This document shows positions 6,001 to 9,000 of a stretch of 12,523 bases of DNA, piece after piece. A program made the position numbers. Within the stretch, counting starts at the first letter, position 1. Each line of letters begins with the position of its first letter. The DNA is from a virus (lineage: Duplodnaviria; Heunggongvirae; Uroviricota; Caudoviricetes): the IMG/VR virus record IMGVR_UViG_2645727991_000008; one strand, written 5' to 3'.

Positions 6001-9000
6001 CTGACGTAAAAACCTTCAACTACACGGCTCACCTGTGGGATATCCGGTGGCTAAGACATTGTGCGAGGAAAACAAGGTGATTGACCAAAATCGAAGTTAC
6101 GAACAAGAAAGCGTCGAGCGAGCTTTAACGTGCGCTAACTGCGGTCAGAAGCTGCATGTGCTGGAAGTTCACGTGTGTGAGCACTGCTGCGCAGAGCTGA
6201 TGAGCGATTCGAATAGCTCGATGCACGAGGAAGAAGATGATGGCTAAACCAGCGCGAAGACGATGTAAAAACGATGAATGTCGGGAATGGTTTCACCCTG
6301 CATTCGCTAATCAGTGGTGGTGCTCTCCAGAGTGTGGAACCAAGATAGCACTCGAACGACGAAGCAAAGAACGCGAAAAAGCGGAAAAGGCAGAAAAGGC
6401 AGCAGAGAAGAAACGACGACGAGAGGAGCAGAAACAGAACGATAAACTTAAGATTCAAAAACTCGCCTTAAAGCCCCGCAGTTACTGGATTAAACAAGCC
6501 CAACAAGCCGTAAACGCCTTCATCAGAGAAAGAGACCGCGACTTACCATGTATCTCGTGCGGAACGCTCACGTCTGCTCAGTGGGATGCCGGACATTACC
6601 GGACAACTGCTGCGGCACCTCAACTCCGATTTGATGAACGCAATATTCACAAGCAATGCGTGGTGTGCAACCAGCACAAAAGCGGAAATCTCGTTCCGTA
6701 TCGCGTCGAACTGATTAGCCGCATCGGGCAGGAAGCAGTAGAGGAAATCGAATCAAACCATAACCGCTATCGCTGGACTGTCGAAGAGTGCAGGGCCATC
6801 AAGGCGGAGTATCAACAGAAACTTAAAAAACTGCGAAACAGCAGAAGTGAGGTTGCATGAATATCTACGAAAGAATTGATGGCAGCAAATACCGAAATAT
6901 TTGGGTAGTTGGCGATCTGCACGGATGCTACACGAACCTGATGAAAAAACTGGAGACGATAGGATTCGACACCAAAAAAGACCTGCTTATCTCGGTGGGC
7001 GATTTGGTTGATCTCGGTACAGAGAACGTAGAATGCCTGGAATTAATCACATTCCCCTGGTTCATAGCTGTACGTGGAAACCATGAGCAAATGATGATTG
7101 ATGGCTTATCAGAGCGTGGAAACGTCAATCACTGGCTGCTTAATGGCGGTGGCTGGTTCTTTAATCTCGATTACGACAAAGAAATTCTGGCTAAAGCTCT
7201 TGCCCATAAAGCAGATGAACTTCCGTTAATCATCGAACTGGTGAGTAAAGGAAAAAAATATGTCATCTGCCACGCCGATTATCCTTGTGATAAATACGAG
7301 TTTGGAAAGCCAGTTGATCATCAGCAGGTAATCTGGAACCGCGAACGAATCAGCAACTCACAAGACGGGATCGTGAAAGAAATCAAAGGCGCGGACACGT
7401 TCATCTTTGGTCATACGCCAGCAGTGAAACCACTCAAATTTGCCAACCAGATGTATATCGATACTGGCGCAGTGTTCTGCGGAAACCTCACATTGATTCA
7501 GGTACAGGGAGAAGGCGCATGAGACTCGAAAGCGTAGCTAAATTTCATTCGCCAAAAAGCCCGATGATGAGCGACTCACTACTGGCCACAGTTTATTGGT
7601 TTTCGTAACTGAGTCATTTTATTATTTTATTGCAACTTTTAATCTTTTATAGTGCGAAATAAATGGAGCTGGCATTCATTTCGCACTTTATGTTTTTGTT
7701 GGACTTATGTTATTTTGATTGAATTCAATTCAGTTAAAAAAGAAGGTGATTGCTCCATTTATAAATGAATAGTCATCCCCTGTCTTGAATTCTGATGTTA
7801 CTTTATTAAATGCTAGTGTGAAGGCTACAGGTGCATACCCAATTGTTGCGCCAACTTGATATTCATCAACAGTTTTGTTTAGCGATACTGTTGTTTGTTT
7901 CGTCTGTATTGTTTTTCCTTCGAGAGTATAGTTGCGATTGACATCTCGTCTTTCCATACCTGCAAAAATCTTGTATTTGAATCCGCTTGTATCGGACATA
8001 TGCATTAAACCACGGGGAGCCAGCAGACCAAAGCCATTATCCGAATTGAAGGTTTTATCATTACCAATGGCAATGGTTGCGCCATATGCTACATATTGAA
8101 ATAAGTTTCCAGTAACAGCAGAAACTTCAGGGTATAATCCAACATTAGCACCTAAAATATCCATACTTGGTGTCATGGATAGCATCCCTTTTACAGTATA
8201 ACCGTAGCGATTCTCTATTTGATCATCCCATGCATGATATTTTTCTGCCCCAATAATCTCATGAGCTTTATTTTGTACTTTCTGACCGCCTGCGTCGGGG
8301 CCAACAACACCTATGTCAGTACCTAATCGATAGCGAATCCAGTCATTCGCAAGGGAGTTCCATTCAATACCAGTGTGAGTGTATGCACTAAAAGCTCTGT
8401 CTCCAGTTACAGCTGTGTTGTGTCTTTTATTACTGCCTGATGGAGAGTAAATATCTTGCGCAATATGGAGAGATAATTGGCTCGAGTCTGAGATATCGTG
8501 GCTATATCCCAGAAATAAGCCTTGTGAGTAATCATCTCTGTTTTCATGTTTATTGCCATAAATATCATTAAGTATTGGTTGAAACTTCCCTGCATCATCA
8601 TTTGCTAATGATAATGCAAGGCTGTTCGCGATAGCTGAACACGTGGTAAATGACAGAGCAATAAAGACGCCAGCGATGACACTTTTTTTCATATGTTATT
8701 GTCTTCCTTTTTTTTGAATGGTGCGCGTATTTTACATACATGAGTTTGTAATACAAGGTGCGTAATCAATATGATGTTTTATAATTGCGTGAGACAATTG
8801 ATTTATTCGTTTTTTATTGCGGTTTTTATTATCTTTTAATGTAACGGTGTTTTTATTAAGTGTGTTTGCGTGGTGTTTTATGTTTTTTATAATTTTTATT
8901 TTATTAAATTTAAAAGCATTAGTAATGGCTATTCTATATAGCAATATAAGAACTGTTACAAAAAAAGGGGGGCAATTACAGGTAGTTATGGATGATGAGT

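Follow-up and report, generated by a model that had tools for sequence, protein, structure and literature searches.

Phages lambda, 21, and 82 each have a Q protein that is specific for its own qut site. Lambdoid phages are also known for morons and for mosaicism at module boundaries, a concept of Hendrix and Casjens. The closest described counterpart of the locus analyzed here is in phage 434. A note in its GenBank record (OL657226) describes CPT_434_64 as similar to lambda Q, an N-terminal fragment, and the record annotates LpxR, a YlcG-like protein, and a Q82-like antiterminator downstream. The fragment is not discussed in the text of the 434 genome announcement (Feiss et al. 2022, PMC9119081), the only paper that turned up when we searched the literature for explicit accounts of the truncation of Q. 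In RefSeq, PGAP treats the corresponding 72 nt as a pseudogene of an 'antitermination protein' that is incomplete and lacks the C-terminus. The joint is thus already known through annotation in phage 434 and RefSeq, and is an ordinary mosaic scar common in E. coli prophages.

We examined a stretch of 12,523 nucleotides from a Caudoviricetes record in IMG/VR (IMGVR_UViG_2645727991_000008), referred to below as the window. It contains a 29-codon ORF that is very likely a non-functional scar of a lambda-type Q. In this explanation, which draws on sequence comparison throughout, a substituted block would have replaced the rest of the gene and late control would be of the Q82 type.

A lambda-type Q gene is cut short behind ninI

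The last intact lambda-like nin gene in the window is ninI (6857..7522, plus strand), which codes for a serine/threonine phosphatase of 221 aa (Pfam Metallophos, E 2.2e-16). The gene is syntenic with lambda ninI and 97% identical to it in nucleotide sequence. It directly follows ninG (6237-6860); ninH, located between the two in lambda, is absent from the window, from phage 434, and from a prophage of E. coli RM14723. Next comes the remnant ORF, Q' (7519..7608, plus strand). Its start overlaps the ninI stop codon in an ATGA exactly as at the lambda ninI/Q boundary, and the lambda Q ribosome-binding site is kept ahead of it.

An initial annotation of the window had described this ORF as lambda Q truncated after about 20 codons, with the rest of the gene missing. 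By BLASTP, residues 1-20 are indeed identical to lambda Q and 22 of 25 are identical overall (E 3e-13 for the peptide alone), and the frame diverges and stops after 29 codons as described. The figure of about 20 codons holds for protein identity, but the DNA homology is longer and reaches codon 24. We looked for alignment to the 5' end of lambda Q at the nucleotide level and found it, lambda 43700-43956 being 97.3% identical to 7333-7589 (E 2.6e-123). This homology of about 97% runs from upstream through ninI into Q, so that 7519-7589 corresponds to lambda Q nt 1-71. It ends at 7589, equivalent to lambda 43956 and Q nt 71 in codon 24. The remaining 7590-7608 of the ORF, ending in TAA, is a foreign, out-of-context tail read from non-lambda DNA.

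The breakpoint can be placed more closely than the end of the match. Perfect identity with lambda stops at 7579. The following 10 bases contain eight matches and two substitutions, 7580 C>T and 7583 G>T, which change Pro-Arg to Leu-Leu and are common to all the junction-bearing copies examined. Because the intact Q allele of MS20659 matches the window through 7591, we place the breakpoint, the left joint of the substituted block, at 7580..7591. This interval falls within the estimate of about 7580-7595 given in the initial annotation.

Nothing more of lambda Q is found in the window. A tblastn search with the full 207-aa lambda Q recovered residues 1-25 only, and a blastn search with lambda 43700-46500, covering Q to bor, gave nothing past 7589-7593. 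In the same searches, the window had no second lambda-type Q and no pR'/qut, 6S, or lysis (S/R) DNA of lambda. With these absent, late control cannot depend on lambda Q, as had been proposed. The missing part of Q carries its RNA polymerase- and DNA-binding functions. Solved functional constructs of lambda Q comprise residues 38-207 and 61-207 (PDB 4MO1, 7UBJ, 7UBM); the N-terminal 37-60 residues are omitted from them, so the stub holds none of the crystallized part. A Pfam search also found no domain in the stub. It therefore differs from a functional lambda-type Q, a full-length protein of about 207 aa with a DNA-/RNA polymerase-binding region and with its cognate pR' promoter/qut downstream. 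The 5' nucleotide homology, the syntenic position, and the missing remainder are those of a lambda Q gene remnant.

A 2313-bp block stands in place of the rest of Q

Intact lambda-type Q genes are present at this junction in related prophages, for example those of RM14723 and MS20659. By blastn, the RM14723 prophage is 98.3% identical to the window over 5900-7589 and 97.7% identical over 9903-10736. Between these flanks RM14723 has 671 bp, made up of lambda-type Q codons 24-207 and the downstream promoter region. Its Q is intact with 207 aa, and the sequence is lambda-like up to lambda 44584. At the same place the window has 2313 bp (7590..9902) with lpxR, ylcG, and a Q82-type gene with its promoter. 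Judged by this alignment, 7590-9902 is a single substituted block relative to the RM14723 backbone. Q and its target site are exchanged together here, in keeping with the specificity of a Q factor for its own qut site.

The left part of the block is an lpxR moron

The first gene of the block, lpxR (7730..8692, minus strand), encodes a 320-aa protein of the outer-membrane lipid A 3'-O-deacylase family. Residues 10-319 match positions 2-321 of the 323 in the LpxR profile (PF09982, E 4.5e-40), a full-length beta-barrel domain that places the protein in the LpxR family. The GC content is 26-44% in the lpxR region and 45-52% in the nin region. Upstream of lpxR lies a very AT-rich spacer (8693..9020, GC 26-28%), which presumably contains its promoter and regulatory region. 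The minus strand near lpxR has weak promoter-like matches, and a strong hairpin follows the stop codon with no U-tract on that strand.

On its right, the moron extends to about 9017-9021. The ribosome-binding site of orf45, at about 9021, is where homology to the rus-orf45-Q region of phage 82 first sets in, so the lpxR cassette is an insertion relative to phage 82. The cassette, about 7590-9020, is absent both from phage 82, where rus-orf45-Q is contiguous, and from RM14723. It thus lies between genes that are adjacent in relatives. With its atypical composition, its opposite strand, and its absence from relatives, lpxR fits the hallmarks of a moron.

Outside E. coli, the closest copy of lpxR is at 2995-3960 of a Citrobacter sp. 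ANG330 locus and is 73% identical. It is in a chromosomal, non-phage context, adjoining phoP/phoQ and a histidine acid phosphatase gene. The homology of this locus to the window is confined to the lpxR coding sequence, which is consistent with capture of the gene from an enterobacterial chromosome; the Citrobacter locus thus offers no donor for 7590-7730. A distant blastn search with 7592-7735 against 50,697 phage records matched only 434 and 434B. Ogawa et al. 2018, as cited in PMC9263587, assign EHEC lpxR to the Ler regulon.

Between the lambda match and the lpxR stop codon are about 140 bp of non-coding, AT-rich DNA (7590-7729). They include a 15-bp hairpin (7651..7687), located 43 nt past the lpxR stop, with folding energies of -16.4 kcal/mol on the plus strand and -19.1 on the minus strand (z -3.4 and -5.5). 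A U-rich tail (7688-7701) follows it on the plus strand only, opposite to lpxR. A simple terminator scan made no call at this hairpin, and it is not annotated in the phage 434 record. It is probably a terminator for rightward transcription that is not antiterminated and/or a 3' end structure of the lpxR mRNA, a function predicted from its fold and tail. An 8-bp unit, ATTTTATT, is tandemly duplicated at about 7617-7632 in the window; there are two copies in O103 RM8385 and one in phage 434.

A preprint describes PasD1 and PasD2, sRNAs related to STnc100, less than 10 kb from LpxR and Q genes (bioRxiv 10.64898/2026.05.13.724894). We rejected a PasD sRNA in the spacer between Q' and lpxR, since the Rfam match is at 11039-11243 and there is none at 7600-7730. 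The match at 11039-11243 (plus strand) is STnc100-like (RF02076, 41.4 bits with a gathering threshold of 47, E 2.8e-6) and ends with a terminal hairpin and U-tract. It is probably a PasD-family sRNA gene by this resemblance. A tRNA search of the window found none.

An intact Q82-type antiterminator is encoded at the right of the block

To the right of the moron, the small ylcG/orf45-like ORF (9030..9152, plus strand) aligns with phage 82 orf45 and belongs to the YlcG family in annotations. It lies ahead of an intact gene for a Q82-type late antiterminator (9167..9856, plus strand), of 229 aa when read from the MNTQ start; a GTG start at 9083 would give a longer alternative ORF. The protein matches positions 1-216 of the 220 in Phage_antiter_Q (PF06323, E 1.7e-91). 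It shares 203 of 229 residues (89%) with phage 82 Q. The full-length family match and the close identity to the experimentally studied Q82 place it in the Q82 type. A search of the PDB by sequence found no relative of the protein.

A promoter scan gave a candidate late promoter, TTGCAA-17-TATACT, at 9840-9868 on the plus strand, overlapping the stop codon of the Q82-type gene. An intrinsic terminator at 9902-9923 (plus strand), identified by a terminator scan and by folding, has a 9-bp GC-rich hairpin and a T8 run. The phage 434 record annotates a terminator at the equivalent place. About 35 nt separate the candidate promoter from the hairpin, and the leader RNA would be roughly 55-60 nt. We expect 9840-9932 to be a short pR' leader and the presumed target of the Q82-type protein, a predicted site. 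Its resemblance to STnc240 is weak and non-significant (E 0.96). Gene content and these predicted elements point to control of the late genes by the Q82-type protein, acting at the candidate promoter/terminator of 9840-9932. The terminator hairpin shared with RM14723 is degenerate there (2340-2400, compared with window 9903-9932; AACCTGCCGCCGAGTAGTTTTT versus AAACCCGCTGCCGAGTGGGTTTTTTTT), so the tR'-like terminator of that prophage may be weakened.

These results also bear on the right-hand side of the joint as first described. The AT-rich gene on the opposite strand downstream of the stub is lpxR, and the different Q candidate beyond it proved to be intact and of the phage 82 type. The junction of a lambda-like early module with a foreign late-regulatory module stands, with one refinement. 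The joint itself is real, but the DNA abutting the stub is the lpxR moron, and phage-82-like DNA begins only at about 9021.

The joint is widespread in E. coli prophages

Among 50,697 phage records, the best match to the window is phage 434, with 98.5-99.4% identity across the joint, lpxR, and Q. Phages 434 and 434B, sequenced independently, have the same joint base for base. Of 5,426 complete E. coli genomes, 620 also have the exact joint, for example O157:H7 EDL933, O55:H7 CB9615, O103, O111, and O145, and a 31-nt junction probe matched 50 IMG/VR contigs. The E. coli matches were ranked and sampled at even intervals, and no record in this sample had the right side of the joint alone. The lpxR flank in E. 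coli therefore essentially always carries the stub.

The window is not simply a copy of phage 434. Over its first 3400 positions (immunity/early-left) it is unlike 434 and 99% identical to ev207, ev017, and PhiR57_1, phages with a CP-933H-type repressor. It is therefore a different mosaic that has only the replication, nin, and late-regulatory region in common with 434. Across the 50 IMG/VR loci with the joint, the match to the window breaks off again and again at about 9157, 9889, 10295, and 11347, which points to additional recurrent module boundaries on the right of the cassette. The end at about 9157 coincides with a 434B/DLP12 crossover noted in the 434 record.

Origin of the joint and alternative readings of the stub

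In the order of events we infer, the ancestor would have been a lambdoid phage in which ninI was followed by a lambda-type Q and then by pR'. At Q nt 71-73, a non-homologous or microhomology-mediated joint would have replaced Q codons 24-207 and the cognate pR'/qut with the lpxR moron, ylcG, and a phage-82-type Q with its own late promoter. As the ribosome-binding site of the stub and its coupling to ninI are intact, a 29-aa peptide is probably still made from it. The peptide would lack the DNA-, RNA polymerase-, and zinc-binding parts of Q. To express the Q82-type protein, N-antiterminated rightward transcription would pass the stub and the hairpin/U-tract at 7651-7701 and cross lpxR in the antisense direction, a path suggested by the operon logic of the lambda family and by the viability of phage 434, which has the same layout. 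The Q82-type protein would then activate the late genes at the promoter/terminator at 9840-9932.

Joints preceded by ninI and joints preceded by ninH are identical and include the same pair of substitutions, so the truncation most likely happened once. Of the 50 IMG/VR loci, 22 have other bases than the window at 7510, 7515, and 7518, and from 7519 on they agree with it completely, which puts the switch of left context within the stub or at its edge. The exchange of the left context most likely came later, through a crossover within the 71-nt stub or at its boundary. On this side, phages with a lambda-type Q have no homology to the cassette other than the stub. As the stub is the only left-hand homology common to the copies with ninI and those with ninH, it has probably served as a recombination patch.

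Whether the stub has been kept for that role is a further question, and we consider such retention less likely than not. In such a case the 71-84 bp of lambda-type Q 5' sequence would let the lpxR-ylcG-Q82 cassette enter any phage with a lambda-type Q, whatever lies upstream. Besides the identical joint in both contexts and the 22 loci that switch context at the stub, the existence of phages with ninH, an intact lambda-type Q, and the same upstream sequence speaks for this. However, a crossover exactly at the gene boundary, a known module boundary, would give the same pattern. Q genes of other types and families abut ninI at 7521, exactly on that boundary, and the lambda record places a recombination point (misc_recomb) 2 nt before Q. 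Moreover, 71 bp is short for efficient homologous recombination. Retention as a homology patch would be an evolutionary consequence compatible with the pseudogene reading and not an alternative to it for the origin of the stub.

We regard as unlikely a broader proposal in which the stub and the hairpin at 7651-7687 together form a retained functional boundary element. Such an element would act as a portable homology patch for the lpxR-Q82 cassette among phages with a lambda-type Q, and/or as a translated mini-ORF and terminator gating N-dependent read-through into antisense lpxR.

Still less probable, and in our estimate very improbable, is that the 29-aa product or its translation is functional, either as a micropeptide or as a coupled mini-ORF that limits Rho-dependent polarity ahead of the untranslated stretch antisense to lpxR. 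In the coupled version, ribosomes would be kept on the pR transcript past ninI. The conserved ribosome-binding site and ATGA coupling favor a function, as does an ORF that is intact in all 49 evaluable loci with a single variant, A7V. Yet the whole region is about 99-100% identical among all copies, so the intactness reflects recent common descent. Since the surrounding non-coding DNA is equally invariant, intactness of the stub is no evidence of selection. A count of variable sites in the 50 junction-bearing loci showed divergence too low everywhere to bear on selection on the stub. The peptide also has no Pfam domain, its C-terminal 9 residues are read from unrelated DNA, and its N-terminal part belongs to the region left out of the crystallized functional constructs of lambda Q. 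The reading of the stub as a non-functional scar is therefore preferred, and no result of the analysis speaks against it.

That the truncation is a misassembly, a sequencing error, or a chance resemblance, with an intact lambda Q really present, has next to no probability and was rejected, given the independent, base-for-base recurrence of the joint in 434, 434B, the complete E. coli genomes, and the IMG/VR contigs and the E value of 2.6e-123 for the nucleotide match.

Comparison with known systems

As a scar, the stub has small significance beyond correct annotation. It is a base-exact marker for tracing the lpxR-Q82 cassette, in which the virulence-associated lpxR travels in one block with a Q82-type regulator. 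The late genes here would run on a Q82-type antiterminator and not on lambda Q, like those of phage 434 and many EHEC and EPEC prophages.

The stub agrees with lambda Q itself (NP_040642) in its ribosome-binding site, its overlap with ninI, and the 71 nt at the 5' end of the gene (20 aa), whereas residues 25-207 of lambda Q and its pR'/qut site are missing from the window. Phage 434 is a closer counterpart. The joint, the 29-codon ORF (CPT_434_64), and the neighboring ninI, lpxR, ylcG-like, and Q82-like genes are all common to both, but 434 has another immunity region upstream of about 3400 and is without the extra ATTTTATT copy at about 7617-7632. The PGAP pseudogene in EHEC/EPEC prophages (CR534_RS18585, I3Q_RS16070) is, as here, directly upstream of lpxR, ylcG, and Q; in a large subset of its copies the upstream gene is ninH and not ninI.

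The locus follows the pattern of lambdoid morons and module mosaicism, in that an accessory gene, AT-rich and on the opposite strand, separates conserved phage genes and Q is exchanged together with its target promoter. It differs in where the exchange fell. Most exchanges at this locus coincide exactly with the ninI/Q or ninH/Q boundary, without a remnant, whereas the joint here lies 71 nt inside the gene. The stub exists because this joint missed the gene boundary by 71 nt, and it illustrates such a miss in module exchange.
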